Assembly (NCBI GenBank): GCA_017394805.1
Contig: JAFPXC010000020.1
Coordinates: 69,578 to 133,577 of the forward strand
Length of the DNA: 64,000 bases
From: Clostridia bacterium
GTDB lineage: Bacteria; Bacillota; Clostridia; Christensenellales; CAG-1252
Direction of reading: 5' to 3'
Below the pieces are notes generated by a model that was not told the DNA's origin, made no database searches, and was given only the letters and a program-made list of their open reading frames with translations. Shown here in pieces: positions 3,700-24,853 of this stretch (its first letter is position 1; each line of letters starts with the position of its first letter). The translations under genes were made by a program, and so were the position numbers.

Positions 3700-5286
3700 A
3701 TGAAAAAAATAGGCATAGTTACGCTAATTGCCATCACGCTGTGCCTCGTGCTGGCGTTCACGGCTTGTACGCCTACGCCTGCGTCCAAAGTGTTCGATGC
3801 AAAGAAGTTCGACACTTCGGTGAATACGAAAGTGTTGACGCAGGCCGTCAAAGTGACCGAATTGGACGGGTATTCGTTGAATAATCGCGCCAACGGATTG
3901 ATGTTGTTCAGCAAAATCAACGGCACCAAAAACGAGTATATTGTGTACGACGCCGTAGCCGAACGCGTCGTAAAGGCCTATTCGGAGGATACCAACGTTA
4001 AATACGCAATTACGCTGCAGTCGGTCAATTTCGTCGACGGTGTGTTCTATGTATTGCGCACGCGTACCGGTGCGACGGAAGCCGAATATTCGTATAAATA
4101 CGAGTTGATCGAGGCAAACGGCGAGACCGTCGCCGAGCAAACGACAGACTATGTGATTGACAACGTAATAAACGTTCGTGCGGACGTCATCCTGTTTGAT
4201 AATACGCTGTATCGCATCGGCGGCGATAATAAAATCGACAAAATCAAAGAGTTGAACGATTTGACCGGCGTTATTCCCAATTTCGACAGCAAGCGGAACG
4301 GCTGTTACTACGACTTCGATGGCGATAAATTTACCGTTTACGACGAGGATTTCGACGTGATCTACTATTATGAGGCACCCAACTACGCCACGAATCCCAA
4401 CTTCAACGTGTTGGATAACGGCAATGTGCTGACTACCTATTCGATACCGAAAATGGATACGGACAACAAGTACGTTTATATCCAAGTGCAAAACAACGCC
4501 GCCAAGAAATACGACCTGCGTCAGTTGGTCATCAACCCCAAAAAGGGCAAAATATCTCAGTTGGAGAATAAATATTATATCGCGTTTGCCTCGTCGCGCT
4601 ACGAGGACGACGGCGAAGACGTTTTCAATGGGCTCAACAAAAAATACGTCAACGTGGCCTGCATCTATCCCATCGAAGACGGGTATCTCAAAAACAACAA
4701 TTCGGACTCTATAATCGTGAGCATAGGCAACGACGGCTTGCCGGGGGATATCCTCAACGCGACCATCGAGGGCGAGCAAGGCTTTGAGTGCATCTCCAAG
4801 GATAGAGTCATCATCAACGACTGGTTCGGCAATAGTTATTTGTGCAACTACAAGGGAAAGGTCATCGGCAAAGTGACGAACAAAATCGGCTATAACGAAA
4901 CCTTCGTCATCGGTGCCGAAAACGTGTACGATATGGACCTCAAAGTGGTGTGCGCCTATGCGAAAGCGGGGTACGACTACGAGTTCTGCTTGGGCAACAG
5001 CGTTGTGCTGAGTAAGGAAGTAGACGGCAAGGTGCAGTATAAACGCTTGACTGCCGATAGCGTTTTGCACGATCTTTGCGACGATAGCGCGAACTTTACC
5101 AGACAAAGCGCGTATTATTCGGTGCGTAAGAACATCGGCAAATACGAACTGTATAACTGCGACAGCGATTTGATCTGGACGGCGGAAAGCCCGATTTCCG
5201 TGTATGCGGATACGTGGGGCGCAAGACAATACGGTCTTGTCAAGGTAAACGAGAGTGGCAGCAACGTATATTATATCTTGCATTAA
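3700..5286 (+). CDS. Lipoprotein of unknown function
   Basis: 528 aa. AAAGGAGG SD 8 nt upstream. Signal peptide MKKIGIVTLIAITLCLVLAFTAC with the lipobox LAFTAC. N/K/Y/D-rich mature part with no catalytic motif that I recognise. Confidence 0.75.
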   Translation: MKKIGIVTLIAITLCLVLAFTACTPTPASKVFDAKKFDTSVNTKVLTQAVKVTELDGYSLNNRANGLMLFSKINGTKNEYIVYDAVAERVVKAYSEDTNVKYAITLQSVNFVDGVFYVLRTRTGATEAEYSYKYELIEANGETVAEQTTDYVIDNVINVRADVILFDNTLYRIGGDNKIDKIKELNDLTGVIPNFDSKRNGCYYDFDGDKFTVYDEDFDVIYYYEAPNYATNPNFNVLDNGNVLTTYSIPKMDTDNKYVYIQVQNNAAKKYDLRQLVINPKKGKISQLENKYYIAFASSRYEDDGEDVFNGLNKKYVNVACIYPIEDGYLKNNNSDSIIVSIGNDGLPGDILNATIEGEQGFECISKDRVIINDWFGNSYLCNYKGKVIGKVTNKIGYNETFVIGAENVYDMDLKVVCAYAKAGYDYEFCLGNSVVLSKEVDGKVQYKRLTADSVLHDLCDDSANFTRQSAYYSVRKNIGKYELYNCDSDLIWTAESPISVYADTWGARQYGLVKVNESGSNVYYILH

Positions 5287-5320
5287 GCCGTAGCAACCGA
5301 TACCCCCTAGCGGTATGCAC

Positions 5321-5361
5321 AAAAAAAACGCTTCTTCTCTTGGCGGAAGAAGCGTTTTTTA
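5321..5361. terminator. Bidirectional intrinsic terminator between convergent genes
   Basis: A8 run, stem ACGCTTCTTC (5328-5337) / GAAGAAGCGT (5346-5355), then a T6 run. Confidence 0.8.
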
Positions 5362-8130: not shown

Positions 8131-8206
8131 GGGGGCATGGCTCAGTTGGTAGAGCGATACGTTCGCAACGTATAGGCCAGGGGTTCGAATCCCCTTGTCT
8201 CCACCA
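8131..8206 (+). tRNA. tRNA-Ala (anticodon CGC), CCA encoded
   Basis: Hand-folded cloverleaf. Acceptor GGGGGCA/TGTCTCC with the Ala identity pair G3:U70. D arm GCTC-AGTTGGTA-GAGC. Anticodon stem ATACG/CGTAT with loop TTCGCAA. T arm AGGGG-TTCGAAT-CCCCT. 3' CCA. Confidence 0.93.
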
Positions 8207-8392: not shown

Positions 8393-10078
8393 ATGGTAAG
8401 GCATCTATTATATTCGCAGGATAACATTACACTGATATTTAGTCTTGCATTTATTATTTGGTTTGTCATTCTTTTGATCGTGCGTAAACCGGTCGGAGAT
8501 AACGCCGTAAAAGCAAAGGTATGGATAGGTCTGTGCTTCGTTCCGCTTGCGGCGGCAATAATTCATTTCTTCTTGTATTCGTTCGGCGACGCGGTGCTGC
8601 CCTTGTTGGCGAAATATGCGTTTATTTATGCGTCGGCCATTCTTACGGCGTTTTTCCCGCTGGTTTTTATGAAAAAGAGCAATAAACCCGTAAAAATAGT
8701 CGGTGCTACGGTTATCGGCGCAGTATGTCTCGTTTCGCTTTTTTTCTATATCGATTCGCCGGCGTCGGTCAATTACTCGAACGGAGATTTGAAGAGCGCA
8801 TACGTTTCGTTGTGCGATTATTTTGAAGAAAACTACATATTGAACGAATGGAAAAAGCCCGATTACGAAAAAATCAAAGCGGACGGCTTGCTGTTGATCG
8901 ACGAAGCCGAAAAGACGGGCGATATAACGAAATACTACGAAGCGATCGACACATTCACGTACGGCTTTTATGACGGACATATGGGTATGTCCTTCTATGA
9001 CGAAAACGATTATTTGATGACGAAGTTAAAGCAATTCAACGACTACGGACTGTCTCTCGTTACGCTGGACGACGGAACCACGATAGCCGTTGACGTGGAA
9101 GACGGGCTTGCCATAAAAAACGGCGACACGGTTACGAAATGGAACGGCGTTCCCATAGACCAAGCCGTTGAAAGCGTGCAGGTGCCGACGCCCGAGGCGG
9201 TAGCCGAAAACGAGAGGATAGAGAAGGCGTTCTGGCTGGCCGGTACGGGCGGCGAGCGCGTTGAGGTGTGCTATATCAACTCGGATAGCGAAGAAAAAAC
9301 GATTACGCTCGATAGGCTTGATTCCGCGTTGCCGAGAGCCTTGCGGGCGAGACGGCTGTTTTGGCACAATACGGATGGGGCATATTCGTATAAAATGCTC
9401 AACGACGATACGGGATATATGAAAATCAAGACGGAAGAAACCGACCGTTTTCACGATTATTTCGCCTACGTCAGCGGCAACCATATATACGCGAGAGAGA
9501 CGTTCAGACGCGACCTGCGAACGCTGAAAAAGCAGGGAATGATGAAGTTGATCGTTGACCTGAGAAACAACGGCGGCGGTTATGACGAGGTCGCAACCGC
9601 TTTTGCAAGTCTGTTTGCAAAAGAAAAAACGTACGCCTTTTCGCTCGGCATCAGAAAGAACGGCGAGTACGTCAAAACCGCCGACAGATATATTATGGCC
9701 GACGGCGAATTCGGCGACGTTGAGATACTCGTGCTTACCAATATGCGCTGTGCGTCCGCGGGTGACGGAATGGTGCTGTATATGTCAAAGCTCGACAACG
9801 TGACGATTGCGGGCTTGTCCTGCCCCTCGGGCTGCAATCAGGAATCGGGCGGCTCGATATATATGCCGAAAGGAGTGGTCGTTAATTTTCCCGTTGGCCT
9901 TGTGCTGGACGAAGAAGGAAATCCGAATATCGACGTTGATGATTCAAGGCAAAGCCGAACGCCGCTCGACGTAAAGATCCCTTTGACGAAAGAGGCGGCT
10001 CTTGCGATCTTTAACGAGGAAAACTTTGACAACGGGGAGGATTACGAACTCGAATGGGCGATCAATTATCTCAATTAA
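8393..10078 (+). CDS. Membrane-anchored S41-family (C-terminal processing / tail-specific) peptidase
   Basis: 561 aa. The N-terminal ~120 aa contain about 4 hydrophobic helices. The C-terminal part carries DLRNNGGGY and TNMRCASAGD motifs typical of S41 peptidases. SD AAGGCGGTGA. Confidence 0.78.
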   Translation: MVRHLLYSQDNITLIFSLAFIIWFVILLIVRKPVGDNAVKAKVWIGLCFVPLAAAIIHFFLYSFGDAVLPLLAKYAFIYASAILTAFFPLVFMKKSNKPVKIVGATVIGAVCLVSLFFYIDSPASVNYSNGDLKSAYVSLCDYFEENYILNEWKKPDYEKIKADGLLLIDEAEKTGDITKYYEAIDTFTYGFYDGHMGMSFYDENDYLMTKLKQFNDYGLSLVTLDDGTTIAVDVEDGLAIKNGDTVTKWNGVPIDQAVESVQVPTPEAVAENERIEKAFWLAGTGGERVEVCYINSDSEEKTITLDRLDSALPRALRARRLFWHNTDGAYSYKMLNDDTGYMKIKTEETDRFHDYFAYVSGNHIYARETFRRDLRTLKKQGMMKLIVDLRNNGGGYDEVATAFASLFAKEKTYAFSLGIRKNGEYVKTADRYIMADGEFGDVEILVLTNMRCASAGDGMVLYMSKLDNVTIAGLSCPSGCNQESGGSIYMPKGVVVNFPVGLVLDEEGNPNIDVDDSRQSRTPLDVKIPLTKEAALAIFNEENFDNGEDYELEWAINYLN

Positions 10079-10190
10079 CGCACTCGGTGACTTCCTTGAC
10101 CGATAATTAAAATTGCCGCCGCAAGCGTTCTTTCGAACCGCGGCGACAGGGGGAAATGCATACCGTGCATTGAGCGCAAGGTTTGGGGTG

Positions 10191-12095
10191 CTAATATCCT
10201 TTGGTGCAGTCTACGACGTTCTGCGGGGCGCGCCCCTGGATATAGTCGATGACGTTTTGGGTGACGTCCTGCACGTAGCGGTCGTGACCGTCCATGACGA
10301 ACATGGCGCGATGGGGAGAAAGGACTACGTTGTCGAACTCTTGCAAATTGTATTTGCTGGGCATGAGTAGGTCGGATTTGTTTTTGGGTTTTTCCTTCCA
10401 TACGTCGTTGGCGATGCCGGCGATAACGTTGTTTTTGAGCGCGTCGTAGAGATCTTTTTCGTTGAGTACGTTGCTACGGCCCACGTTGACGATGAATTTA
10501 TCGCGCAACCACTCGAAACTCTCCTTGTTGAAAATATCGTCCGTGTCGGGCGTTTTCGGCAGGGAAGAGATGATGAGATCGCAAGTTTGGCACAGCTCTT
10601 TGAAATCCTTGACGAGACGAACGTTGTGGTAGGGTTTGCCTCTGTCTATGGTGTATGTCTCAATATCGTTGGCCATGAGTATTTTGTGTATCTGCTTGCC
10701 GATGTCGCCATAGCCCAATAGACCTATCTTCATATCGAAAATGCTTTTCCAATACCGATAGTTTTCGTCGTTCCATTCGCCTTTTCGGAGTTTTTTGTCG
10801 AAAATGCAGATTTGATTGACCAGCGTGATAGCCAACCCGAACGCATACTCGGCAATGTAGTCCGAATTGACGTGCGAATTGCACAATAATACGTCCTTTT
10901 GGGCCAGCTCTTTGAGGGGGAAATCGTCTACGCCCGTCTTGTAGGCGAAGATCGCTTTGAGACGATTGGCCGTAGCGAGCGTGGCCGCGGAGAGTTTCTT
11001 GCCGATGAAGACGTCAACGTCGGATAGGTCTACGTCGTTCAATCCGCATACGCGGACGGTGGCGAAATTGGACAGCACGCTACGCATTCTTTCGAAGGAA
11101 GCGTCCATTTCACCCACGCTCAGCAATATGGTGGGATCTTTCAATATCCGATTGAAATCGTAGTAGGAAGCCACCGTTTCGTAGGGTGCGTTGAGAATGT
11201 CGCCCGCCACTTGGTGTTTGAGTATATAAGACGATATGCCCAATTCGAGCGCTTCCGAGAGGTCGTCGTGCGTGAATAGTCCGTATATAACGCCTGCGTC
11301 GAAAGCGTCGCCCCCGCCGATGCGTTCTTTGACGCGCAATTTGATGCCGTCCAACGCGATGGTTTCCTTGTGAGAGGCCGCCACCACGCGCATCAAGCCG
11401 ACTTCGCCTTTTTTGTCGTCGAGTCTATCCCGCAAAAACAGGTATTTGGCGTCGGGATAGAGCGAAAAAAAGCCGTTGACGAAATCGTCTTGCAGATCTA
11501 AAAAGACCTGCATATCCTTGGTGGACGCCGAGATCACGTCGACGTAGCGAAGCAGTTTGCGAAACGTCGCGCCCGCTTGGTCGGTAGTCCACAAAGCGGG
11601 GCGGTAATTGAAATCGAAACTTGTGGGAATGCCCCGTTCCCGTGCGCTTCGGAGAAGGCGAAACGCCACTCGCTCGGCGGAAGGGGACACGGCGAACGAA
11701 ATGCCCGACACGTGGAACCATCCTACGTCGTCGAAAATATGCTCGAAATCAACGTCGCTCTCGTCGATATGCGCGAATGCGGAATTGCGCCTGTTGTAAA
11801 CGGTCGCTTTGGCGCGGTCTTTCTCTTGGGCGAAGAGATAGTATTCGCCCATATTGCCGTCTTTGACAATGACCGAAGACGTGTCGACGCGGTATTCGTT
11901 GAGTTTGGCGAGGGCGAACGCGCCGATCTTGTCTTTGGGCAGTACGCTGAGATACTTCGCGTCGAGCCCCATTCCCGAAAGACAGCATAATACGTTCGCT
12001 TCCGTGCCGCCGCAGCAATAGTCGAAAGACGAATTGGTATCTATATCGTCTGCGGATAATCTGAGTAATATTTCACCGAATGCAAGTACTTTCAT
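10191..12095 (-). CDS. Fusion protein: PfkB-family sugar(-acid) kinase (KdgK-like) + D-isomer-specific 2-hydroxyacid dehydrogenase
   Basis: A single 634-aa ORF. The N-terminal ~310 aa are KdgK-like (FGEILLRL, GGTEANV, and the GGGDAFDAG anion hole). The C-terminal ~300 aa carry the NAD site GLLGYGDIGKQI and an R/D/H catalytic set (VGRSNV, ANDVW, SPHRA). Confidence 0.8.
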   Translation of the reverse strand: MKVLAFGEILLRLSADDIDTNSSFDYCCGGTEANVLCCLSGMGLDAKYLSVLPKDKIGAFALAKLNEYRVDTSSVIVKDGNMGEYYLFAQEKDRAKATVYNRRNSAFAHIDESDVDFEHIFDDVGWFHVSGISFAVSPSAERVAFRLLRSARERGIPTSFDFNYRPALWTTDQAGATFRKLLRYVDVISASTKDMQVFLDLQDDFVNGFFSLYPDAKYLFLRDRLDDKKGEVGLMRVVAASHKETIALDGIKLRVKERIGGGDAFDAGVIYGLFTHDDLSEALELGISSYILKHQVAGDILNAPYETVASYYDFNRILKDPTILLSVGEMDASFERMRSVLSNFATVRVCGLNDVDLSDVDVFIGKKLSAATLATANRLKAIFAYKTGVDDFPLKELAQKDVLLCNSHVNSDYIAEYAFGLAITLVNQICIFDKKLRKGEWNDENYRYWKSIFDMKIGLLGYGDIGKQIHKILMANDIETYTIDRGKPYHNVRLVKDFKELCQTCDLIISSLPKTPDTDDIFNKESFEWLRDKFIVNVGRSNVLNEKDLYDALKNNVIAGIANDVWKEKPKNKSDLLMPSKYNLQEFDNVVLSPHRAMFVMDGHDRYVQDVTQNVIDYIQGRAPQNVVDCTKGY

Positions 12096-12107
12096 CGCGT
12101 TACCTCA

Positions 12108-13676
12108 TCAAATCTTCGGCTGACCGTTGGAGTCGAAAATACGCTCGTGCGCGAGTTCCATATACGCTATGCAGGCAAGTAGAGCGTCGCCGCTTTCACG
12201 ATAGTAGCGGATAGGGCAGTATTTATGGGACTTTTGCAGGCAATTCTGTGCGCCGAAGCGGACGCGCGGGGATAGTTTGCGATAGACGCGTAGCGTTTCG
12301 TCGCGCTTGCGTAAGGTAAATCCGTATTTGAAATCCACGGCGAGCTTGTCGTGTCTGACCAGGAAATATTTGCTGTCGAGTTTTTCTTTTTTGAGAGGAT
12401 TGCCGCTTACGTCGGCGGAGAAATCCTCGATTTGCCGTTTGAGCGCTTCCGCCCCGATGTTGAGTACGACGTAGAAATACAGATTGGGTTTGCCTCCTTC
12501 CACCAGGTCGCGCGCCAGCCCCAGGAAGTTGGTGCGTAGATCGAAGGCATACTGATCTTTGGTGATGCCGAAGTTTTCTTTGAGCGTTTTGGCGATCACC
12601 GTGGCGAACAATTCGTTCTCGACGCCCTCGATGATCACTTTCGCCTGTCGGTCGTAGTAACTATCGAACTTGTCCGGTTTGAAGGCAAGCGATATTGGTT
12701 GGGCGAACTTGTTTTTCCAAGTCGTCTTTTTGCGACTGCGTTTTTCGATCAAAAGATATCCGTCCGACGTGATGACCAACCCGTTGATGCCGATTTGGTT
12801 GCACAGAAGACTGTCTTTGAGATCGTTCAGGCGGGGATTATACTCGTACAGATCGCGCACGGTCACGCCTTGCTCGATGCAGTAGTCCATACATCTGTTG
12901 GTCAGCAGCATCTGATAATAGGTGGATTTTTGCGTTTCGAGCGTCAACTCGTCGGTCTCATCGGTTTGGCGGAAGGATACATCCCTAAGGCGAATGGACG
13001 TCGCGTTGCGCACGATAGAGTGTTTGTGCGCGCTGATGAGATTGGTGGCGCAGTTGATGAGAAAGTCGGGCAGTTGGTATTGCTCTGGCGAATCGTGTAT
13101 CGTGATGGTTGCGTTGCCTTCAACGTTGGCATACACGTTGACGTTCGGCAAGGTAAGCACGTGCTTTTGCGTGAATTGCCCGACGTCCATACAATAGTTT
13201 ATGCGCTCGTCCGAATATTTGTCGTAAATGTAGGGATAGAGGTATCGACGGGGGCGACGGTCGGCAATATGCGCGGTGATCTGCAGATCGTGGCCAACGC
13301 TATCGTAGCGGTTTTGGATGATTTCGGCCGTGCAGTCGTCTTCGCTGAAATGGCTCTTGTATCGGTGAATGATGGCGCGTTTTTCGTCGTTCAATTTGGT
13401 GTATTCTTCGCTTCTGTTGCGGAAAACGTCAACGAAAAAGACCACCGTCGCGCTGGCAAGCGCCGTCAGACAAACGGATATGAAACTCATATCCGTGATC
13501 AACTTGCGCAGGGCCTCTTGGGGGGATAAGCCATGTAATTCGTGGAAGGGCAACTTCGGCAGGACGAGTATGGAGATCAAAATGACAGCCACGCACAGAA
13601 TGACGAAGATGATCGCTCTGAAAAGGCCCCGTTCCCAACTTTTGTGTATTTCTTTGAAAGTTGCGTGTTTTCGCAT
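12108..13676 (-). CDS. Hypothetical 2-TM membrane-anchored protein with a large soluble domain (possible degenerate Nudix-like fold)
   Basis: 522 aa. SD AAAGGAG. Two N-terminal hydrophobic helices (residues ~18-40 and ~65-87). The stretch GINGLVITSDGYLLIEKRS ... GVENELFATVIAKTLKENFGI resembles a Nudix strand plus box but lacks the catalytic REx2EE. I do not recognise a family. Confidence 0.65.
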   Translation of the reverse strand: MRKHATFKEIHKSWERGLFRAIIFVILCVAVILISILVLPKLPFHELHGLSPQEALRKLITDMSFISVCLTALASATVVFFVDVFRNRSEEYTKLNDEKRAIIHRYKSHFSEDDCTAEIIQNRYDSVGHDLQITAHIADRRPRRYLYPYIYDKYSDERINYCMDVGQFTQKHVLTLPNVNVYANVEGNATITIHDSPEQYQLPDFLINCATNLISAHKHSIVRNATSIRLRDVSFRQTDETDELTLETQKSTYYQMLLTNRCMDYCIEQGVTVRDLYEYNPRLNDLKDSLLCNQIGINGLVITSDGYLLIEKRSRKKTTWKNKFAQPISLAFKPDKFDSYYDRQAKVIIEGVENELFATVIAKTLKENFGITKDQYAFDLRTNFLGLARDLVEGGKPNLYFYVVLNIGAEALKRQIEDFSADVSGNPLKKEKLDSKYFLVRHDKLAVDFKYGFTLRKRDETLRVYRKLSPRVRFGAQNCLQKSHKYCPIRYYRESGDALLACIAYMELAHERIFDSNGQPKI

Positions 13677-13704
13677 GTGTAACTCCTTTGTGACAGACGA
13701 TCGA

Positions 13705-14133
13705 TCATTCGTTCGAGCCGTCGGGATGGTCGGGCGTGTTGTCGATCGACTCAGCCGTTTCTTCGCCGCCCGAAGGCGTCAATTCCGCAGGTACGAGCGC
13801 GTCGTCTACGGGCAGAGGCCTGTTGTTGTTGAGACCTACTGTGTTGTCTACGGGCAGGGCAAAGGCGATGCCGTGGCAGTTGGTATTGATGCCCACCTTG
13901 CTGTACAAAGCGTGCAGTATGGTGTCGCGTATGGGCGTGGGCACCAATATCATCACCATCTCTTTGTTGGGCTGTATGGCGATGTTGAAGTAGCGCTCGG
14001 CCTCTTTGTTGGCCGTGCCTCTCGCGTGGACGACCGTACCGCCGCGTGCGCCGCATTCCTTGGCCGCGTCCATGACGTTGTCGATATATCCTTCGTCTAC
14101 GATACAAATGATCAGTTGATGCCTATATTCCAT
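13705..14133 (-). CDS. P-II-family signal-transduction-like protein with an acidic C-terminal tail
   Basis: 142 aa. A beta-alpha-beta pattern (LIICIVDEGYIDNVMDAAKECGARGGTVVHARG ... HGIAFALPVDNTVGL) aligns by eye to GlnB/PII. SD TAGGAG. Confidence 0.7.
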   Translation of the reverse strand: MEYRHQLIICIVDEGYIDNVMDAAKECGARGGTVVHARGTANKEAERYFNIAIQPNKEMVMILVPTPIRDTILHALYSKVGINTNCHGIAFALPVDNTVGLNNNRPLPVDDALVPAELTPSGGEETAESIDNTPDHPDGSNE

Positions 14134-14142
14134 ACGATGCTC

Positions 14143-14526
14143 CTATAACTTGCGCGTGTCGCTCAAAAAACTGTACGCCGAAACGCCGATGAGGGCGGAC
14201 ATGGGCACGGTGTAGGCGATGCCCTTGCCACCTTTGATGGTGTTGAATTTCTCTTCCAATTCTTCCAAAACGCCCTGTACGCAGTCCTCGCGAATGACGC
14301 TGACGATGACCGTGCGCTCGGTGTTGGCAAAGCCCATATACGCCAAAGCCGCTTTGGGCGCGGTGCCGTTGGCAAGAAGTTGCAACTGCATATTGACGTG
14401 GTAGGACTGTATCAAATCCATATAAAAATCCGCCTTGTTACGGTTGACCACCGTAAACAGGACGCTCAACTTGTCGCTTTTGAGTTTTTGATTGGTATTG
14501 GTGTTGACGATGCGTTTCTTTTTCAT
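14143..14526 (-). CDS. P-II-like protein (second, divergent paralog)
   Basis: 127 aa (LSVLFTVVNRNKADFYMDLIQ ... KGIAYTVPMSALIG). It starts 3 nt after the stop of the upstream permease gene, suggesting translational coupling. Confidence 0.62.
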   Translation of the reverse strand: MKKKRIVNTNTNQKLKSDKLSVLFTVVNRNKADFYMDLIQSYHVNMQLQLLANGTAPKAALAYMGFANTERTVIVSVIREDCVQGVLEELEEKFNTIKGGKGIAYTVPMSALIGVSAYSFLSDTRKL

Positions 14527-14529
14527 AGG

Positions 14530-16053
14530 CTACATAAATTCGATGATCTGCTCGTCGTCCGCGTCGTAGATATGACGCAACGCGATGCGCTTGCGTATAA
14601 GGTGCGCCGCTACGGCTCTGAAGCCCAATACCTGTATGGTGATGAGGGGCGTCATAGCCACCAAAGCGACCACGCCGAAGCCGTACTCGAGGACGGATTG
14701 CTCCCCGCGCAGGGCGAAGGACGCGCCGATGACCATGGGTAGGATAAAGCCCGAAGTCAAGGGACCGGACGCCACGCCGCCCGCGTCGAACGCGATGGCC
14801 GTGTAGATTTTGGGTACGAAGAAACTCAAACCGAGGCTGACGATGTAGCCGGGAATGAGATAGTAGAGAATGGAGAAGCCGTAGATAAGGCGAATGATGC
14901 TCAACCCGATGGAGATGCCCACGCCCAAGGAGAGGGCAATCATCATACTGCGTTTGGACACCGTGCCGCCCGTGGTGGTCTCGACCTCTTTGTTGAGCAC
15001 GTGGACGGCAGGCTCGGCCAAAACGACCACCATGCCGATAACGACGCCGAATATGGTCAAGAGCAATTTGTTGTCGGACAGGCTGACGCCGATCTTGTAC
15101 CCGACGGGCATAAAGCCGATTTCGACCGCGCCCAAGAAGAGCACCATACCGATAAAGGTATAGATGAGGCCGAATACGATTTGTTTGACCTTGCTTTTGG
15201 GCAGGTGCATCAACGTCAGTTGCAGTAATACGAAGAAGACGACGATGAGGGACAGCGCGCGGACGACGTTGAGCACGACGTTGAGCACGGTGCCGCCGAA
15301 GAACGCGCCGAGGTGGGCGCTCACCGAATAGTCGGAAAGGGTATAGGCCATGTCGCCCTTGGCGACAAGCGCCAAGATGAGTACGGCGGCCACGGGGCCG
15401 ATGGAGCAGAGCGAGATGAGGCCGAAACTGTTTTCGCCGCTGTTTTTACCGCCTACGGTGGCGGCAACGCCTATGCCCAAGGCCATGATGAAGGGCACGG
15501 TGATGGGGCCTGTCGTCACGCCGCCCGAATCGAACGAGAGGGGCAGAAAGGCCTTTTTTTGCGTTTCGATAAGCACCGCCGCGACGGCAAACAGCAGGAA
15601 ATAGAAGAAAATAAGTATCGACGACAAGTCCTTTTTGAATAGGATCTTCACCATGCCGATGAGCAGGAAAATGCCGACGCCCGCGCCCACGCCGAAGAGG
15701 AGCGCGTATGGATTGATGACCGATTTGACTTGGTTGGCCAGGACGGATAGGTCGGGTTCGGCGACCGTGACCAATACGCCCATGATCAAGGTGACCGTCA
15801 ACAAAAGGGGTATGTTCTTGCGCTTTGTCAGGCTGGTGCCCATGGATTCGCCGATGGTCATCATGGCGAGTTCCGCGCCCATATTGAAGAGCGCGATGCC
15901 CGCTATCAGCACGACAACGCATATGGAAAACGTGACGATCTCCAAGGTCGACAGGTGAACGAACGGCGTAAAATAGACGGCTATAACGACGATTGCCACG
16001 GGCAATACGGCGCACAACGCTTCTATGAACTTTTTGTTGAGGTTTTTGAACAT
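14530..16053 (-). CDS. Polytopic membrane protein, DUF1538-like putative permease (internally duplicated)
   Basis: 507 aa with more than 10 hydrophobic helices in two similar halves. Pairing with PII-like genes matches my recollection of the DUF1538 neighbourhood. The family assignment was not verified by a search. Confidence 0.65.
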   Translation of the reverse strand: MFKNLNKKFIEALCAVLPVAIVVIAVYFTPFVHLSTLEIVTFSICVVVLIAGIALFNMGAELAMMTIGESMGTSLTKRKNIPLLLTVTLIMGVLVTVAEPDLSVLANQVKSVINPYALLFGVGAGVGIFLLIGMVKILFKKDLSSILIFFYFLLFAVAAVLIETQKKAFLPLSFDSGGVTTGPITVPFIMALGIGVAATVGGKNSGENSFGLISLCSIGPVAAVLILALVAKGDMAYTLSDYSVSAHLGAFFGGTVLNVVLNVVRALSLIVVFFVLLQLTLMHLPKSKVKQIVFGLIYTFIGMVLFLGAVEIGFMPVGYKIGVSLSDNKLLLTIFGVVIGMVVVLAEPAVHVLNKEVETTTGGTVSKRSMMIALSLGVGISIGLSIIRLIYGFSILYYLIPGYIVSLGLSFFVPKIYTAIAFDAGGVASGPLTSGFILPMVIGASFALRGEQSVLEYGFGVVALVAMTPLITIQVLGFRAVAAHLIRKRIALRHIYDADDEQIIEFM

Positions 16054-16066
16054 TGACTTTGATTCT

Positions 16067-19000
16067 CTATTCTACAGTAAGATCGACGGCGACGACGTAT
16101 GTATGAAACTTGGGCAGTTTGTACGGTTTTTTCGTGCAAGCCATGGCGGGCAGGTCGCCGCCCACGCCCCGTTGCGCTCCGTCCACGTTGACGGTGAGGT
16201 AGGGTAGTCTGCCCAACTCGTGCAAGTGCTTGGCTTCGTCCAGCATATCCACCGTGTAGGGGTGCACCCCGAGTTGGAAGTTGTGGCTGACCGCGCTCAG
16301 TTTCACCTTGCGCTTGTCGCCGATCTCGGCCCATCTGACGTCCATACGGTTGCCGTTTTCCTGCGGGCTGAGGTAGTCGTGCGTCATTTCTTCGCCCGAT
16401 TTGCGGTAGACGCCCAAGACGCAGTTGCGCGCGCGATCCGAATAGGCCTCGTGCTCGCCGTTGCCGTAGTAGGTGACGCCGTCTATCCCCTCGGAAAGCC
16501 CGAATTCGAAGCCGTAGCGCACCATATTGGCCATCGGCGTCAAATTCATCGCCAGCCGCACCGTGCCGTCGGGATAGAAGGTGTAATCGATATCGAAACC
16601 CACGATATAACGAGCGTGCATATCGAAGTGTAGCAAGATTCCGTCCTCAGACTCGGTCATGGACGAGGCCACGCATTTGGCGCGTTTGGCCACGTTGCGG
16701 AATTTGCTGAGGCCCAACAGTTTGTTGAGGTCAACGACCGAGTTGGACTCGTATTTGTCGTTGTTGGTGATGGCGCGCCAGAATTGCGGTTTGACGGGCG
16801 TTTGGAGATACTCCAGCCCGCCGCGCCGTATGCTCTCCAGGGCGCCCGTGGCGAGATTGACGCGATAGGTGGTCGCGCCCGCAAATACCGTGAATGCGTC
16901 CCCGTCGCGTTGATAGTTGACCTTGCCTTTGCTGTGGGCGGTATTGCGCACGACGCGATTGAGCAAGAAGTCGTCGTAGGCGACGACGTGCCCCGCCGCC
17001 GCGTAGGGCAGGTCGGCTTTTTGACGGAACTCCACCAAAAGGCTGTACTCGGCGTCGTCCTTTGCGCGTAATTCGCGCGGCAAATCGAAATACGCCGTGG
17101 AGTTGGGCTTACAGTCGGGGAACAACTGCGCGCAGTCGTAACTCTTGCGTAGAGCGTCTACGCCGTCGCGGCGCAGCGTAAGGTCCATCGTATAGCCGTC
17201 GAGGGTGCTAAAAGATTGTTTGTTGTGAACGCAAAGGGTGTGCTTGTCGAGCGTGCATTGAATGCGCTCGTACACCTTGAAAACCTCGTAGAAAGCGGGG
17301 TTGGGCGAGCGGTCGGCACGCAGTATGCCGTTGAAAGCAAACACGCCGTCGTTGGGCTTGTCGCCCCAATCTCCGCCCATCGTCCATTGTGTTACGCCGT
17401 CTACGATGCGTTTGATGGATTGGTCGGCGAAGTCCCATATATAACCGCCTGTAAGGCGCGGGTTTTTCTCGAATACGTCCCAATAGTCGCCGAAGTTGCC
17501 GAGGCTGTTGCCCATACAATGCGCGTACTCGCATTGTATAAAGGGCTTATGCTTGTATTGCGCGGGCGTCAAAAGGTTGCCCATACCCAAATTCCACAAG
17601 GCTCTGCTGTGGATATACGGCTTGTTGTCGGCTATCTTCTGCATGGATGTCTGTTTGGCGTACATCGAGCTGACCATATCGCTGACTTGATGATATGGCT
17701 CGTAGTGGATGAGGCGGGTGCCGTCCAATTCCAAGGCGACGCGTTTGAGGGCGGGGAAGACCTTTCCTTTGCCCGATTCGTTGCCCAAAGACCAGAAGAG
17801 AATGCACGGATGGTTGCGGAAAGCGCGTACCATATTGCGCATACGATACTCGGTGTGGCGTAGCCACAGGGGATTGCCACGCGGTATGAGATGGGCCAAT
17901 CCGTGCGTTTCGAGATTGTTCTCACACATGACCAAGATGCCCAATTCGTCGCACATTTCGTAGAAAAAGGCGGGGTTGGGGTAGTGGCAGGTGCGGATAG
18001 AGGTCACGTTGTTGGCGCGTAATAGGCACAAATCCCGATAGGTCAACTCTCGCGGTACGGCGTGGCCGTATTCGGGATGAAAATCGTGACGGTTGACGCC
18101 GCATATTTTGACGAGCCGACCGTTGAGGGCAATATAGGGTTGTCCCGACGGATCGTCCTCGCGCACGTCTACTTTGCGGAAGCCGTAGCGGAAGAGCCGC
18201 TTGTCCGTGACGACGCCGTTCTTTTCCAATCGTAATTCGAGGTTGTAGAGGTGCGGCGTTTCGTGGCTCCACAGCAAGAAGTCGCGCAGTTGCTTGGTCT
18301 GGAATTGCATGGTAGCCTTGGCTTCGAGTTTCATTTTGACCTTCAAAGCGGGGATCTCCAGGTGGCAAACGGTGCCTTCGGGATGGTCGACCGACACGTC
18401 GGCGATGATGGTCGCTTGGGACAATCCGTCCGTGAATTCCGTATGGAAGTACGCGTCCGTAAAATGGCTATCCGACACATATTGCAGGGTGACGTCGCGG
18501 AAAATGCCCGCCAAACGCCACATATCTTGATCCTCGAGATAGGAGCCGGTGCAGAACTGCACCACCAAAACGGACAGGCGGTTTTCGCCCGTCGTCACGA
18601 AATCGGTCACGTCGTACGCCGCGTAGTCGAAGGTATCCTCGGAGTAGCCGACGAAACGTCCGTTGACGTAAACGACCCCGCAACTGTTGATGCCGTCGAA
18701 GCGCAAGATCACCTTTTCTCTGTCCGCCTTGACTTCGAACGTGCGCGTATAGAAGCCGCACGGATTGATGGCGTCGTCGATATAAGGCAGTTTGCCCGCC
18801 CGCATACTGATGGGGTAGGGGTACCGGACGTTGGTGTAGATGGGGGTGCCGTAGCCTTTGATTTGCCATTCGGAAGGGACGGAAATGACGTCCAAGCCGT
18901 CGCAGTCCACGTCCGCGGCGAACAACTTTTCGTCGAAATCGTTGACCGAGTCGTAAAAGCGAAAATACCACTCTCCGTTGAGATCGAGTACGGCGGGATG

Positions 19001-19087
19001 GCCGCCTTCGTCCAAGGGGGCGGTCAACGCGTTGCGCTCGAGCGTGTTGACGCTGAATATATCTTTGTTTTGCCAATATTTTTCCAT
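16067..19087 (-). CDS. lacZ: Beta-galactosidase, glycoside hydrolase family 2
   Basis: About 1006 aa with GH2 motifs NRHDFHPEYGHA, WSLGNESG and CEYAHCMGNS. I prefer the ATG at 19087 (AAGTGAG 7 nt upstream). The ORF track starts at the GTG at 19099, which lacks an SD. Confidence 0.9.
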   Translation of the reverse strand: MEKYWQNKDIFSVNTLERNALTAPLDEGGHPAVLDLNGEWYFRFYDSVNDFDEKLFAADVDCDGLDVISVPSEWQIKGYGTPIYTNVRYPYPISMRAGKLPYIDDAINPCGFYTRTFEVKADREKVILRFDGINSCGVVYVNGRFVGYSEDTFDYAAYDVTDFVTTGENRLSVLVVQFCTGSYLEDQDMWRLAGIFRDVTLQYVSDSHFTDAYFHTEFTDGLSQATIIADVSVDHPEGTVCHLEIPALKVKMKLEAKATMQFQTKQLRDFLLWSHETPHLYNLELRLEKNGVVTDKRLFRYGFRKVDVREDDPSGQPYIALNGRLVKICGVNRHDFHPEYGHAVPRELTYRDLCLLRANNVTSIRTCHYPNPAFFYEMCDELGILVMCENNLETHGLAHLIPRGNPLWLRHTEYRMRNMVRAFRNHPCILFWSLGNESGKGKVFPALKRVALELDGTRLIHYEPYHQVSDMVSSMYAKQTSMQKIADNKPYIHSRALWNLGMGNLLTPAQYKHKPFIQCEYAHCMGNSLGNFGDYWDVFEKNPRLTGGYIWDFADQSIKRIVDGVTQWTMGGDWGDKPNDGVFAFNGILRADRSPNPAFYEVFKVYERIQCTLDKHTLCVHNKQSFSTLDGYTMDLTLRRDGVDALRKSYDCAQLFPDCKPNSTAYFDLPRELRAKDDAEYSLLVEFRQKADLPYAAAGHVVAYDDFLLNRVVRNTAHSKGKVNYQRDGDAFTVFAGATTYRVNLATGALESIRRGGLEYLQTPVKPQFWRAITNNDKYESNSVVDLNKLLGLSKFRNVAKRAKCVASSMTESEDGILLHFDMHARYIVGFDIDYTFYPDGTVRLAMNLTPMANMVRYGFEFGLSEGIDGVTYYGNGEHEAYSDRARNCVLGVYRKSGEEMTHDYLSPQENGNRMDVRWAEIGDKRKVKLSAVSHNFQLGVHPYTVDMLDEAKHLHELGRLPYLTVNVDGAQRGVGGDLPAMACTKKPYKLPKFHTYVVAVDLTVE

Positions 19088-19187
19088 GTGTGCGCTCACT
19101 TTTCGGTATGATGGTTATATTATATAATATAAAATCGAATATTTCAAGCCCTAAAGCGGTTAATTTAATCGAAGCGCAAACAATCTA

Positions 19188-20893: not shown

Positions 20894-21232
20894 ATGGGTA
20901 GAGGAGGATACGGCGGCTTTGGCGGCGGCAATATGCAAAACATGATTCGCCAAGCGCAGAAGATTCAGGAAGAAATGCAACAGGCGCAGGAGAATTTGCG
21001 CAATACCGAGTTCGAAGGCAACGGCGGCGGCGAGTTGGTCAAAGTGGTCATGACGGGGGATAAAGACGTCGTGTCCGTTTCCATCAAGCCCGAAGCGGTG
21101 GATTCCGACGATATCGAAATGCTCGAAGATTTGATCACGGCCGCTTTGCAGGACGCCACCGAAAAAGTGGACGCCGAGACGCAACGCGTGATGGGTCCCT
21201 ATACTTCCATGTTGGGCGGCGGTATGTTTTGA
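20894..21232 (+). CDS. ybaB: Nucleoid-associated protein YbaB/EbfC
   Basis: 112 aa. NMQNMIRQAQKIQEEMQQAQE ... GGELVKVVMTGDKDV is typical of YbaB. SD GGAGG. Confidence 0.9.
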   Translation: MGRGGYGGFGGGNMQNMIRQAQKIQEEMQQAQENLRNTEFEGNGGGELVKVVMTGDKDVVSVSIKPEAVDSDDIEMLEDLITAALQDATEKVDAETQRVMGPYTSMLGGGMF

Positions 21233-21816
21233 TGAATCAATCCGAAACGATTGACGCGTTGGTCGCGCAGTTTACCAAGTTGCCGGGCGTGGGCAAAAAG
21301 AGCGCCATACGCTATGCGTATGCCGTTATCGATATGCCCGAAGCGGACGTCGAGCGATTTGCCGACGCGATGGTGGCCGTCAAAAAAACCGTGCATTTTT
21401 GCAAGATTTGCGGCAACTATACGGACGGCGAAACCTGTGAAATTTGCGCCAACAGGCAGAGCAAAGTCATTTGCGTGGTCGCCGAGCCGAAGGATATCGT
21501 TGCGTTCGAAAAACTCAACGAGTTTCACGGGCTCTACCACGTCCTGCACGGGCTGTTGCAACCCATGAAAGGCGTGGGGGCGGACGACCTCAATATATCT
21601 TCGCTGTTGACTCGTTTGGACGGGGTGGAAGAGGTGATTGTCGCCACCAATCCCAGCGTGGAAGGCAACGCCACGGCGCTCTATCTCAGCCGCCTTATCA
21701 AGCCGCTCGGCGTAAAAGTGACGCGCATTGCCATGGGGATTCCGGCGGGTAGCGAGATCGAATATATCGACGAAACCACGCTGTCGCACGCGCTGTGGAA
21801 TAGAAAGGAAATATAA
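21229..21816 (+). CDS. recR: Recombination protein RecR
   Basis: 195 aa. HhH (LPGVGKKSA), C4 zinc finger (CKICGNYTDGETCEIC) and Toprim region. ATGA overlap with ybaB. Confidence 0.93.
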   Translation: MMNQSETIDALVAQFTKLPGVGKKSAIRYAYAVIDMPEADVERFADAMVAVKKTVHFCKICGNYTDGETCEICANRQSKVICVVAEPKDIVAFEKLNEFHGLYHVLHGLLQPMKGVGADDLNISSLLTRLDGVEEVIVATNPSVEGNATALYLSRLIKPLGVKVTRIAMGIPAGSEIEYIDETTLSHALWNRKEI

Positions 21817-21840
21817 ATATCGATTGAGAATATAAAAGAA

Positions 21841-21866
21841 ACGGGCGCCTATCGGCGTCCGTTTTC
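21841..21866. terminator. Intrinsic terminator between convergent recR and the acidic-protein gene
   Basis: Stem ACGGGCGCC (21841-21849) / GGCGTCCGT (21854-21862) with a 4-nt loop, followed by TTTT. Confidence 0.7.
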
Positions 21867-21868
21867 GC

Positions 21869-24853
21869 TTAGATGACATAGAACTTTCTCGTTCGATAGA
21901 GTAGGGCGTACACGATTACCCATACTGGCAGCAACAGTAGCATGGCCGCGGGGTAGAACACGGGGGCGATAAGGGTGTTGATCTCGCTGATATTGGCGCC
22001 CGATTTCGGATTGAAGAAGGCGATCAGTAAGAAGATCATCATCAATATCAACGCCACCATGAACGAGGTTGCGAACGATAGTTTGAAGGAGAAGGTCGCC
22101 GGCGCGTGTCGGTCTTTGTACGCCAGATAGCGTACGCCGCAGTAGCAGGGGATAAGGAACAGCACGATGCCCGTGCATAGGTAGGGCATAAAGCCGAGCC
22201 CCGCGTATTTGTCACACACGAAGTAGCCGATGAGAATGAGCGCGACCGCCACCAGATAGACTAAGCACGAGGTGGCAAAGCGAATGCTGTTGACGTTGAT
22301 ATATTTCTGCGAATAGTACTGCACGGTATGCTGGACGACGTATTGGCGCACATCGTAGCCTTTTTTGCGCATCTCTTCGCGGAATTCGGACAGACTGCCG
22401 CATTCCTTCATCGTGATTTTGCTGTCCACGTCTTCTTGCTGTTTGGGCGCGTTGGACGAATTGAACAAGTTGTGCAAAATCGTCTTGTACGACAGGTGTT
22501 TTTCCGTTTCTTCCTGTTGCAGGTAGATTTCCAATTCGGTTTGGGGCGTGAAGATGGCGGAGTAGGACTCTCTCTTTGGCGAGATTTCTTCCTCTTTGAC
22601 CTCGGGCACTTCCTCTTCTGGCTCTTGCGGCTCCTCGGTTTTATCGTCCTCGATCAAGCCCAAAAGGCGCATAGAAGCAAGCCTTTTCTCGTGCATTTCG
22701 GGGTTTTCTTCCAATTCTTGCCGAATGTCGGCACGACTGAACGCCGTCCTGCGTTTGATTGGTTCAGGCTCGGCTTGGGCGGCCTCTTGCGATTGCTCGT
22801 ACAAGGCAAAGGTGTCGGCTTCTTCCTCTTCGGCAATGACGCGTTCCTCGTTTTTGCGGCCTTTACGCCCTTTCTGCCGCGCCTTTTTGTCTTCTTTGAC
22901 GGGCGCAACGGGCTCGTTCGATTCTTCCTCGGGCAAGGAACTATTCGCCTCTACGACGGCTTCGTCATAGGTGGATTCGGGCTGTGCTTCCGCTTGTTCC
23001 GAGGGGAGAGTAGCCTCGACGTCGGACGGAGTTTCGTCGGTTTGCGCTTCTTCTTGCGTTTCGCTATCGGCGTCGTCGGCACGAGATTCTTGTTCGGCGG
23101 GTTCTTCCGTTCGTTCGCTTGCGACCACAGGCTCTTTATAGGTTCGTTCTGCTTCGGGCACTACGGGATATTCCTCGTCGGTCGTCTCTTGTGCGGGTTC
23201 TTCCGTTGTGTCTTGGGATGGCTCGCCGAAGAGGACGTATTCGTCCATCACGGTCGAAGTCGGTTCGTAGGCGGATTCGGTCTCGACCGCGGTGGGCGTT
23301 TCGTCGTCCTCGACAACTGCTTCGAGCTCGTCGGTTTCGTTATATTCTTCGGTTATGTCTTCTTCTGCCGCTTCGTCTCGTTCGTCGACGGGTTGCTCGG
23401 CGCTTTCGGTTTCGATCGATTCGTCTTCAACGTCGGCGTTTTCGTCAACTATTTCCGCGCATATCTCGTCTTCGTCCGTATCGTCGGTATTTTCGACGAC
23501 AAAGGGCGGTTCATCGCCGTCTTCTTCGTGTTCTTCGCTATTCTCTGCGGCGATAACTTGTTCGTCTTCCGATTCTTCTTCGACTGCTTCCGTTTGGTCG
23601 CTTTCGACAGCATACGCGGCCTCGTCCGCCGTATCGTCGAATTGCTCGTCGAGCACTTCCTCGGCAACTTCGGCAGGTTCTTCCTCGTCGTTATCGTCCG
23701 ATTCTCGTTCGTCTTCGCAGACGGTTTCAGCTTGTTTGAACGGCTCGTAAGAGTAGGGCGGCTCGTATTCGCTTGCCGCTTCATCGTCTGCGCTTTCGTC
23801 TTCGTCCGTCACCTGCGCCTCTTCCGCCGTATCGTCTTCGGCGGCGTAAAGCGCTTCGTGCGCAGGCTCGTATTCTTCGTCCGATATTGCTTCCTCGTCC
23901 GTTTCTTCTTGCACGACCTCTTCTTGCTCGTCGTCGGAGGGTAGGGCGGGTTGTTCTTCGTCTTGGGCGGCTTCTTTTATTTCAGTCTCGTCTTCGTTTA
24001 TATCGTCGGCAGCTTCTTCGAAGGGCTCTTCCTTGATTTCTTCCTCGTCCGACTCGGCGAAAACTTCCTCGACTTGTTCGGCTTCTGCGGGGAGTTCGTC
24101 GGAAATTTCTTCGCATTCGACGTTGGAATCTTCCTCAGACTCGGACGAATCGTCTTCGTCAACGTCCTCGGCAGCGTCTTTCGCCGCTATTGAATCTTCT
24201 TCCGTTTCGGCGGGCTCTTCGACTTCTACGGGGCATTCTTCTTCGATTTGCGCGGAATCATCCTCGTTTTCTTGGTCATCAGCTGCGTTTTCGGTCGAAT
24301 ATTGCGCATCGGTATCCGTTTCCTGTTCGGTTAGAGATTCGTCAATGGCGATATCCGTTTCACTTTCGACTTCACTTTCGTCGGTATCGGCGGCGTCCGC
24401 TTCCGCTGCAAGTTCGGTGAACTCCTCGGCATCTTCGATTTCGAAAATCTCGAGGTTGTCTTCAAAAATGTGCAGGGTAGGCTTGCCGTCACCGAAATCA
24501 TCGGTGAGATATATCTTCTCGTTCGAAGCGCTCACCGGAGAGAGCGCCAGCGCGTCGCACAATTTGTCGATCATTTGGTCGTCCAGATTGAACATAGGCA
24601 GGTCATCGACCGAAATGCGCAGGGCAAAAAACGAGCGGTTGGGATCGGATTCTTGACAAATGCAGGCAATCAGGCAATCCAACTGCAATTCGTTGACTCT
24701 ATTGGCGACGCTCAAAGGGGAAATATGATAACGGTCCAAAAAACCGTCCAAAGACGACGTAATCTCGTAAACTGTCAACGAGGAATGCGCCAATGCGTTG
24801 AGTATGTAGGAATCCATTTGTTCCAGCAATTCATCGTATATATTATTTCCCAT
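21869..24853 (-). CDS. Hyper-acidic membrane-anchored protein: winged-helix-like N-terminal domain, ~540-aa D/E-rich disordered tract, 4-TM C-terminus
   Basis: 994-aa ORF. The N-terminal ~130 aa are globular (ILNALAHSSLTVYEITSSL... resembles a wHTH). Residues ~140-680 are roughly 40-50 percent D+E by eye, with almost no K/R. A short basic patch follows (KKARQKGRKGRKNEER). The C-terminal ~150 aa contain four long hydrophobic helices. No family recognised. Confidence 0.75.
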   Translation of the reverse strand: MGNNIYDELLEQMDSYILNALAHSSLTVYEITSSLDGFLDRYHISPLSVANRVNELQLDCLIACICQESDPNRSFFALRISVDDLPMFNLDDQMIDKLCDALALSPVSASNEKIYLTDDFGDGKPTLHIFEDNLEIFEIEDAEEFTELAAEADAADTDESEVESETDIAIDESLTEQETDTDAQYSTENAADDQENEDDSAQIEEECPVEVEEPAETEEDSIAAKDAAEDVDEDDSSESEEDSNVECEEISDELPAEAEQVEEVFAESDEEEIKEEPFEEAADDINEDETEIKEAAQDEEQPALPSDDEQEEVVQEETDEEAISDEEYEPAHEALYAAEDDTAEEAQVTDEDESADDEAASEYEPPYSYEPFKQAETVCEDERESDDNDEEEPAEVAEEVLDEQFDDTADEAAYAVESDQTEAVEEESEDEQVIAAENSEEHEEDGDEPPFVVENTDDTDEDEICAEIVDENADVEDESIETESAEQPVDERDEAAEEDITEEYNETDELEAVVEDDETPTAVETESAYEPTSTVMDEYVLFGEPSQDTTEEPAQETTDEEYPVVPEAERTYKEPVVASERTEEPAEQESRADDADSETQEEAQTDETPSDVEATLPSEQAEAQPESTYDEAVVEANSSLPEEESNEPVAPVKEDKKARQKGRKGRKNEERVIAEEEEADTFALYEQSQEAAQAEPEPIKRRTAFSRADIRQELEENPEMHEKRLASMRLLGLIEDDKTEEPQEPEEEVPEVKEEEISPKRESYSAIFTPQTELEIYLQQEETEKHLSYKTILHNLFNSSNAPKQQEDVDSKITMKECGSLSEFREEMRKKGYDVRQYVVQHTVQYYSQKYINVNSIRFATSCLVYLVAVALILIGYFVCDKYAGLGFMPYLCTGIVLFLIPCYCGVRYLAYKDRHAPATFSFKLSFATSFMVALILMMIFLLIAFFNPKSGANISEINTLIAPVFYPAAMLLLLPVWVIVYALLYRTRKFYVI

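Follow-up and report, generated by a model that had tools for sequence, protein, structure and literature searches.

The six minus-strand genes at positions 10191–19099 of a 64,000-nt stretch of DNA from a Clostridia bacterium (Christensenellales, CAG-1252; assembly GCA_017394805.1, contig JAFPXC010000020.1) probably make up a composite transcription unit, in which three evolutionarily independent modules stand head-to-tail behind one promoter in one uncultured lineage of gut or rumen Bacillota. All coordinates refer to this whole stretch, which is called the window below. The first module is a lacZ-type gene. The second encodes a DUF1538 protein and two PII-like proteins, and the third a membrane-anchored protein related by predicted fold to human NUDT22, together with a PfkB-type kinase fused to a D-2-hydroxyacid dehydrogenase (2HADH). 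An initial annotation had treated all six genes as one undescribed system for using glycosides or sugar acids, with PII-type regulation of uptake. Its description of the genes is borne out here, but not the unity of the system. The chief interest of the cluster is in modules 2 and 3, above all in the NUDT22-like/PfkB/2HADH trio. The genes, given as open reading frames (ORFs) with lengths in amino acids (aa), and the signals around them are as follows.

16067–19099, minus strand: LacZ-type glycoside hydrolase family 2 (GH2) ORF, 1010 aa from GTG (module 1)
14530–16053, minus strand: DUF1538 protein, 507 aa (module 2a)
14143–14526, minus strand: PII-like protein A, 127 aa (module 2b)
13705–14133, minus strand: PII-like protein B, 142 aa (module 2c)
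12108–13676, minus strand: membrane-anchored protein with a predicted NUDT22-like Nudix fold, 522 aa (module 3a; first described as an unknown with two transmembrane segments, 2-TM)
10191–12095, minus strand: PfkB::D-2-hydroxyacid dehydrogenase fusion, 634 aa (module 3b/c)
19119–19147, minus strand: sigma-70-like promoter TTGAAA-17-TATAAT, 11/12 consensus matches, in the lacZ/dnaX divergent region
10103–10148, minus strand: probable intrinsic terminator, a 14-bp GC-rich hairpin then AUUUUAAUU, downstream of the last gene

The modules are conserved separately in relatives, and the cluster is therefore best described as a lineage-specific juxtaposition of the three. The complete six-gene order was found only in conspecific contigs, in which the fusion protein is 100% identical, so that a check of gene-order conservation essentially failed for the single six-gene utilisation system first proposed. 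The DUF1538 gene and the two PII-like genes form a triad that is present at each of the 27 related loci where it could fit, in Clostridia and Fibrobacter and down to 50–60% identity, while the other neighbours vary. There is no lacZ at 24 of these 27 loci. A lacZ gene directly before DUF1538, at gaps of 0–13 nt, was found only in the window, at loci L071, L072 and L076 of related genomes, and at the conspecific loci L104–L106. DUF1538 identity in L071, L072 and L076 is 79–83%, and these three share flanking synteny with the conspecific loci (the dnaX flank, with dnaX-ybaB-recR in L071 and L104). In L072 (83% DUF1538 identity), lacZ, DUF1538 and the two PII genes are followed by AbiH/MmeI instead of the 522-aa gene and the kinase.

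The trio was surveyed in one genome per species, which gave 64 loci, 60 of them untruncated by contig ends. These derive from gut and rumen Clostridia, Christensenellaceae, Oscillospiraceae, Acutalibacteraceae, "Bacilli" and Anaeroplasmataceae. The order 522-aa homologue, PfkB, 2HADH on one strand is kept at 56 of the 60 untruncated loci, all from distinct species-level metagenome-assembled genomes (MAGs), with median apparent gaps of ~45 and ~41 nt. The genes that follow the 522-aa homologues are PfkB and 2HADH, as two genes or fused, and not lacZ, DUF1538 or PII. A LacZ-type gene occurs at none of the 64 loci, and DUF1538-PII-PII lies within 10 kb of the trio at one locus only (L010, ~5 kb upstream). 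Both modules co-occur at 1 of 60 loci, a frequency close to random expectation for a common triad, and this was not taken as meaningful. No conserved fourth gene emerged when the 899 ORFs of the 64 loci were clustered; only generic ATP-binding cassette (ABC) ATPases, cation diffusion facilitator transporters and spurious antisense ORFs recurred. Likewise, no Pfam family was enriched among 100 trio-flanking genes, the commonest being BPL_LplA_LipB with 5 of the 100.

Kinase and dehydrogenase are two separate genes in most relatives. PfkB::2HADH fusions are found in at least three lineages (the window and L001; L024, L027, L034 and L041; L028 and L061). Fusions of the 522-aa type with PfkB also exist (proteins P0242 and P0253), and in L101 a 2HADH gene stands directly after the P0242 fusion. 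Since both unknown::PfkB and PfkB::dehydrogenase fusions occur, the members of the trio appear to be functionally tied together.

A few loci depart from the usual arrangement. In L036:5812–8209 and L070:10001–12396 (labelled Lachnospiraceae) the NUDT22-like gene is directly followed by 2HADH, with no PfkB match, and in L015 and L052 both partners are absent despite room. In one Clostridia lineage (L003:3625–15955, also L008) the trio is preceded by genes for a family 4 glycosyltransferase, a mannose-1-phosphate guanylyltransferase, a phosphoglucomutase/phosphomannomutase and an NTP-transferase/phosphomannose isomerase, and is followed by a non-LacZ GH2 gene. A GH2 gene also lies ~2 kb downstream of the trio in L026 (8316–9449). 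These neighbourhoods hint at a possible link to nucleotide-sugar metabolism, though not a general one.

Within the window, the six genes have the appearance of a single transcription unit. They lie on one strand with intergenic gaps of 13, 3, 9, 28 and 12 nt, and the coordinates match those first reported exactly. The promoter-like sequence at 19147–19119 falls in the region initially marked as the promoter, between lacZ and dnaX, which diverges from 19196; the call is a consensus match only and says nothing of function. A consensus scan of the five intergenic gaps found no terminator-like site, in agreement with the initial annotation, and the convergent S41 peptidase gene stops at 10078. The terminator hairpin at 10148–10103 appears in both minimum free energy and centroid folds, with a z-score for the whole segment of just −1.4, and the consensus terminator scan did not pick up the site. 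Scanned against Rfam, the window gave a single match, a tRNA-Ala at 8131–8203, and neither a riboswitch nor a leader in the cluster. Shine-Dalgarno sequences are present upstream of the last three genes. The 127-aa gene begins 3 nt past the DUF1538 stop without such a sequence, and on account of these two features it is probably translationally coupled to DUF1538. With one strand, short gaps, one promoter, one terminator and none internal, all six genes are probably co-transcribed in this organism.

Tight packing in this window is not specific to functionally linked genes, and is weak evidence of a link when taken alone. On the minus strand at 27894–35852, a metC-like gene, miaA, mutL and mutS overlap by 4–8 nt, with miaB just upstream. 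This run (the metC-like gene matches Met_gamma_lyase) shows how closely this genome can crowd genes whose functions are loosely related. That the cluster does not hold up as a new lacZ system warns against reading too much into close gene spacing when Bacillota genomes are compact.

The domain calls of the initial annotation (lacZ, DUF1538-like, two PII-like, 2-TM and kinase::dehydrogenase) are upheld by Pfam, NCBIfam, hhalign and the hydrophobic segments. The 1010-aa protein has the five-domain architecture of LacZ, made up of a sugar-binding and an Ig-like domain, a TIM barrel, domain 4 and a small-chain domain, with Glyco_hydro_2_N, Glyco_hydro_2, Glyco_hydro_2_C, LacZ_4 and Bgal_small_N all above Pfam cut-offs. 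Its best NCBIfam match, Bga2A, scores 808.7 bits against a cut-off of 999, and because this equivalog threshold is not reached, the protein is assigned to LacZ at the family level only. Both catalytic glutamates are kept, the acid/base in 'GNESG' (E441) and the nucleophile in 'QCEYAHCMGNS' (E524); we take these to correspond to E461 and E537 of the E. coli enzyme. The N-terminus is unlike a signal peptide (as judged by eye, with no predictor), and the enzyme appears to be cytoplasmic. The ATG at 19087 is a likelier start than the GTG, since conspecific gene calls give 1006 aa.

In its architecture, its two glutamates, its apparently cytoplasmic location and its place at the head of a multigene unit, this gene resembles those of the lac operon and other lacZ-centred loci (lacZYA; lacS-lacZ with Leloir genes). 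It differs in its company. Over ~0–46 kb of the window there is no galactoside transporter, no gene of the LacY, LacS, ABC or phosphotransferase system (PTS) type, no Leloir or tagatose gene and no LacI-type regulator. The initial annotation had remarked on the want of such transport and catabolic genes in the cluster. The genes that adjoin lacZ downstream are not conserved lacZ partners, and the locus does not qualify as a galactoside operon.

The second module is built around the 507-aa protein, which matches Pfam DUF1538 with 396.5 bits over two stretches. Each half matches both UmpA and UmpB, with scores of 143 bits for UmpA (NCBIfam equivalog cut-off 490) and 121 bits for UmpB (cut-off 500) that fall far under the thresholds. 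From this similarity the protein would be the single-chain equivalent of a fused UmpA and UmpB, and a putative transporter of ions or small solutes. Homologues number more than 8000, with ~60% identity even in Fibrobacter. The AlphaFold2 (AF2) model is all-helical, with a mean predicted local distance difference test (pLDDT) of 82, and a Foldseek comparison with the PDB gave nothing significant (best E 0.036, TM-score <0.2). Without a match among solved structures, the fold gives no hint of substrate. UmpAB of Halomonas zhaodongensis, a Na+(Li+,K+)/H+ antiporter composed of a heterodimer of two DUF1538 proteins, is the sole characterised member of the family, and it is not a sugar carrier (PMC5484666). 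The two share the Pfam family and the two homologous halves. In the window, however, the halves are fused in one chain, and two PII-like genes always follow in the triad, whereas the UmpAB paper is silent on such genes (PMC5484666). No evidence directs DUF1538 towards a galactoside substrate, and an ion or small solute seems more likely.

The 142-aa protein consists of a PII core of ~100 aa and a 40-aa acidic, poorly conserved tail, and matches Pfam P-II with 29.6 bits (cut-off 25). Its PDB profile matches are weak (GlnB, GlnK and SbtB at E 0.03–0.9). The 127-aa protein gave no match in a Pfam scan, but comparison of the two families with hhalign (probability 96.5%, E 7e-10) identifies them as paralogues. 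Taken together, the PDB profile matches of the pair range over E 0.03–1.5. The label "two PII-like proteins" therefore seems fair by sequence comparison, though both are very divergent from canonical PII.

GlnK gates the transporter AmtB, and SbtB gates SbtA. As in those systems, small PII-like genes stand immediately after the gene for a putative transporter and are conserved with it. The triad differs in having two divergent paralogues in place of one, a similarity to canonical PII that is very weak, and a transporter fold that is different and structurally unrepresented. Full-text literature searches found no paper connecting DUF1538 with PII, nor 'PII-like' with UmpAB. Because the transporter is so consistently partnered with two PII-like genes, PII-type control of DUF1538 is a reasonable reading, and by analogy the arrangement suggests that the pair gates DUF1538 in a metabolite-dependent way. 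In such a mechanism, the PII-like pair would bind a metabolite or nucleotide and gate DUF1538 much as GlnK acts on AmtB and SbtB on SbtA. The PII-type regulation of uptake in the initial annotation is thus retained as regulation; as uptake of a glycoside it is not, since UmpAB is a cation/H+ antiporter.

The third module begins with the 522-aa protein, which gave no match in Pfam, NCBIfam or PADLOC and only noise in a PDB sequence-profile search. Hydrophobic segments lie at residues ~17–40 and ~63–86. With a basic N-terminus and two transmembrane helices, the positive-inside rule would place the large C-terminal domain in the cytoplasm. The AF2 model has a pLDDT of 86.7 and a predicted template-modelling score (pTM) of 0.85, and its top Foldseek matches are structures of human NUDT22 (5lor, 5lou and 5lf9), with E 3e-14 and TM-scores relative to the target of 0.64–0.69 over ~340 columns. 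Generic Nudix folds follow far behind, at E ~3e-3. The modelled fold relates this membrane-anchored protein to human NUDT22. Both have the two-domain fold, and both are missing the conventional Nudix box (PMC5688067 for NUDT22). The human protein acts on UDP-glucose and UDP-galactose (PMC10101856). Against these likenesses, the bacterial protein is only 15–16% identical, without a match at the sequence level, and carries an additional N-terminal 2-TM anchor and helical region of ~170 residues. It is also bacterial, and is found in operons or fusions with a kinase and a dehydrogenase.

Conserved motifs of the family are TNRCMDY, NQIGINGL, WKNKFAQ and RDLxEGGKPN, alongside numerous invariant Arg, Lys, Asp, Cys and His residues, which include R261, C262, D264, K321, K323, R389, D390 and K396. 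The position of the Nudix helix reads 'KTxKxNFG' instead of REUxEExGU, so that a test for the canonical box, GX5EX7REUXEEXGU, failed; relative to NUDT22, the glutamates of this helix are replaced by K, T, K and N. TNRCMDY was considered as the TNxxC motif of isopentenyl diphosphate isomerase and was set aside, as its position is not equivalent (it lies in the N-terminal domain, ahead of the Nudix core strand). None of the 295 homologues has a Pfam match or a functional name; where a source is named, it belongs to Clostridia, Oscillospiraceae and related MAGs. The best matches in the genome collection have 37–43% identity. Among 1.84 billion representative proteins, a profile search returned 917 clusters (~900 at 50% identity), including a sister tier of 400–470-aa proteins with the same architecture.

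The 2-TM NUDT22-like proteins of the sister family (400–710 aa; L100:1568–3298, L102:6001–9012 and L103:3805–6816) occur without kinase and dehydrogenase partners. Their genes adjoin VanZ-LLP1 genes at both independent loci examined, and some of the proteins carry a fused N-terminal sugar-type oxidoreductase of the GFO/IDH/MocA family.

The 634-aa protein that completes the trio is divided into a PfkB domain at residues ~1–310 and an NAD-type D-2-hydroxyacid dehydrogenase at ~330–634. Pfam scores are 90.5 bits for PfkB, 122 for 2-Hacid_dh_C and 36.6 for 2-Hacid_dh. Its best PDB sequence matches are the 2-keto-3-deoxygluconate (KDG) kinase of T. maritima (2afb, 9e-40) and a P. horikoshii dehydrogenase (2d0i, 2.5e-32). 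These domains and the 2afb match agree with the initial call of a KdgK-like kinase fused to a 2-hydroxyacid dehydrogenase. Catalytic motifs of both halves are legible in the translation: 'IGGGDAF' in the kinase (the GxGD anion hole and catalytic Asp), and 'GYGDIG', 'VGRS', 'DVWKEKP' and 'SPHRA' in the dehydrogenase, which has catalytic and NAD-binding domains, GxGxxG and the catalytic Arg, Glu and His of its family. Both domains score below every NCBIfam equivalog cut-off, so that no substrate, and for the dehydrogenase no subfamily, is assigned. Judged by sequence, the kinase is closest to KDG kinases and the dehydrogenase to 2-hydroxyacid/glyoxylate reductases of the archaeal type.

The pairing recalls that of KguK and KguD, which we take to be a PfkB kinase and a 2HADH enzyme, respectively. 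In each case a sugar-acid kinase is paired with a keto-acid reductase, which would act on the product of the kinase. In the 2-ketogluconate operon of Pseudomonas, the pathway runs through KguK and then KguD (PMC11678583). The trio differs from that operon in lacking a KguT-type transporter and KguE, in having a membrane Nudix-like protein as partner, and in its hosts, which are gut anaerobes; the nearest sequence matches of its enzymes are KDG kinases and archaeal-type 2HADH. Following the same logic, kinase and dehydrogenase could act in succession on a keto- or hydroxy-sugar acid, the first phosphorylating it and the second reducing the 2-keto group. On the inner side of the membrane, the NUDT22-like protein might bind, sense, deliver or cleave a precursor activated by a nucleotide. 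By analogy, then, and with low confidence, a working model of the trio would have a keto-sugar acid phosphorylated and then reduced, with the NUDT22-like protein handling a nucleotide-linked precursor.

Several observations weigh against a cluster of three independent modules. Co-orientation, gaps of no more than 28 nt, a single promoter-like site and a single terminator favour co-expression of all six genes, which might stem from a link in function that arose within this lineage. The adjacency of lacZ and DUF1538 is kept down to ~70% LacZ identity, so it is not an accident of one strain, and the 46 kb examined yielded no further transporter that could serve a LacZ substrate. The activity of NUDT22 on UDP-glucose and UDP-galactose (PMC10101856) fits thematically with galactose metabolism, and the trio lies near other GH2 genes in L003/L008 and L026. 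Every substrate assignment, moreover, rests on analogy. A single pathway that used all six products would have DUF1538 importing a glycoside under PII control, LacZ cleaving it, and the 2-TM protein and the kinase::dehydrogenase processing the product. Such a pathway would account for the tight packing behind one promoter, with no intergenic terminator in the scan, for the six-gene order in four conspecific contigs, and for lacZ next to DUF1538 in relatives at 79–83% DUF1538 identity. It would also supply the importer that an apparently cytoplasmic LacZ needs where no canonical one is nearby, and a kinase of the KDG or 2-keto-3-deoxygalactonate (KDGal) type would suit it. It is nevertheless improbable given the 24 of 27 triads without lacZ, the 64 trio loci without a LacZ-type gene, and the 83% relative (L072) that has the first four genes and not the last two. 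Those DUF1538 proteins that have been characterised work as cation/H+ antiporters (PMC5484666), the model of DUF1538 resembles no solved transporter fold, that of sugar carriers included, and unrelated genes elsewhere in the window are packed as tightly. The boldest version, in which this lineage has wired both modules to LacZ as a new galactoside route, is unlikely.

A link might be confined to part of the cluster. LacZ and DUF1538/PII could be coupled in this genus, for example by keeping up the ion balance on which cation-coupled galactoside uptake elsewhere would depend or by importing a small substrate of LacZ, with the trio an unrelated passenger. The direct succession of lacZ and DUF1538 in the window, L071, L072, L076 and L104–L106 speaks for such a coupling, but shared flanking synteny marks these as one inherited arrangement and not independent recurrences, and more distant triads never carry lacZ; we give this possibility little credence. 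A similarly small chance is allowed for a non-catabolic trio, with a role in stress, defence or the envelope, in which the 2-TM Nudix-like protein would sense a nucleotide and act in the membrane. The replacement of the Nudix catalytic glutamates by KTxKxN, with many conserved basic residues that suggest ligand binding, is in keeping with this, and the 2-TM plus Nudix architecture is reminiscent of nucleotide-sensing effectors. Sister-family genes lie beside VanZ-like genes at both loci examined, with an AbiEii gene nearby in L102, and the trio is present in lineages labelled Anaeroplasmataceae and Bacilli. However, PADLOC gave no match, and the flanks of the trio are ordinary housekeeping genes in which no defence-island signature was seen; a defence system as such found no support on these two counts. 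The trio is also a stable single locus over ~60 species, and its enzymes retain their catalytic motifs and occur joined in fusions, both with one another and with the Nudix-like protein, as is often the case for metabolic enzymes.

The composite of three independent modules is therefore preferred. Of the undescribed system first claimed, what stands is that two modules (2 and 3) are undescribed; what does not is their union in one lacZ-led system for glycosides or sugar acids. A more far-reaching reading, to which we would give slightly less than even weight, holds jointly that the 522-aa protein founds a bacterial family of membrane-anchored NUDT22-like proteins, that with PfkB and 2HADH it forms an undescribed, self-contained membrane-associated nucleotide-sugar/sugar-acid pathway in uncultured gut Bacillota, and that DUF1538 represents a widespread class of transporters gated by a dedicated, divergent PII-like pair. 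The triad occurs in thousands of genomes across phyla, and would extend PII gating to a transporter fold without a solved structure and with a single characterised member. The trio, found in ~60 species-level MAGs from gut and rumen, of Clostridia and Bacilli that are for the most part uncultured, is unannotated, and fusions link every adjacent pair of its genes. Through it, the NUDT22 branch of the Nudix superfamily, which is poorly understood, could be approached from bacteria, and enzymology would gain a target of three proteins in organisms for whose metabolism metagenomes are the only source.

To 46 kb, the window otherwise holds housekeeping genes, including those for M3 and S41 peptidases, dnaX, ybaB, mutS, mutL, miaA, miaB, and clpB-like and dinB-like genes. 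Long ORFs with no Pfam match occur on both strands at 3700–5322 (528 and 532 aa) and at 36054–37544 (496 and 466 aa). At 21199–27700 there are three abutting minus-strand ORFs (226, 994 and 260 aa) with no Pfam or PADLOC match, followed by a tyrosine recombinase at 26645–27700, and GC content in this region falls to 0.43. As recR directly follows ybaB at this position in the conspecific L104 and L105, the region is a strain-specific inserted island. A further difference between strains concerns the S41 peptidase gene. In the window it encodes a plain 561-aa peptidase, with the tRNA-Ala (8131–8206) before it, while at the position equivalent to 8393–10078 the conspecific L104 (12005–15415), L105 and L106 have a single 1136-aa ORF with Resolvase, Recombinase, Zn_ribbon_recom and Peptidase_S41 domains. 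By this comparison, those strains seem to carry a large-serine-recombinase element that entered the peptidase gene at its 5' end.

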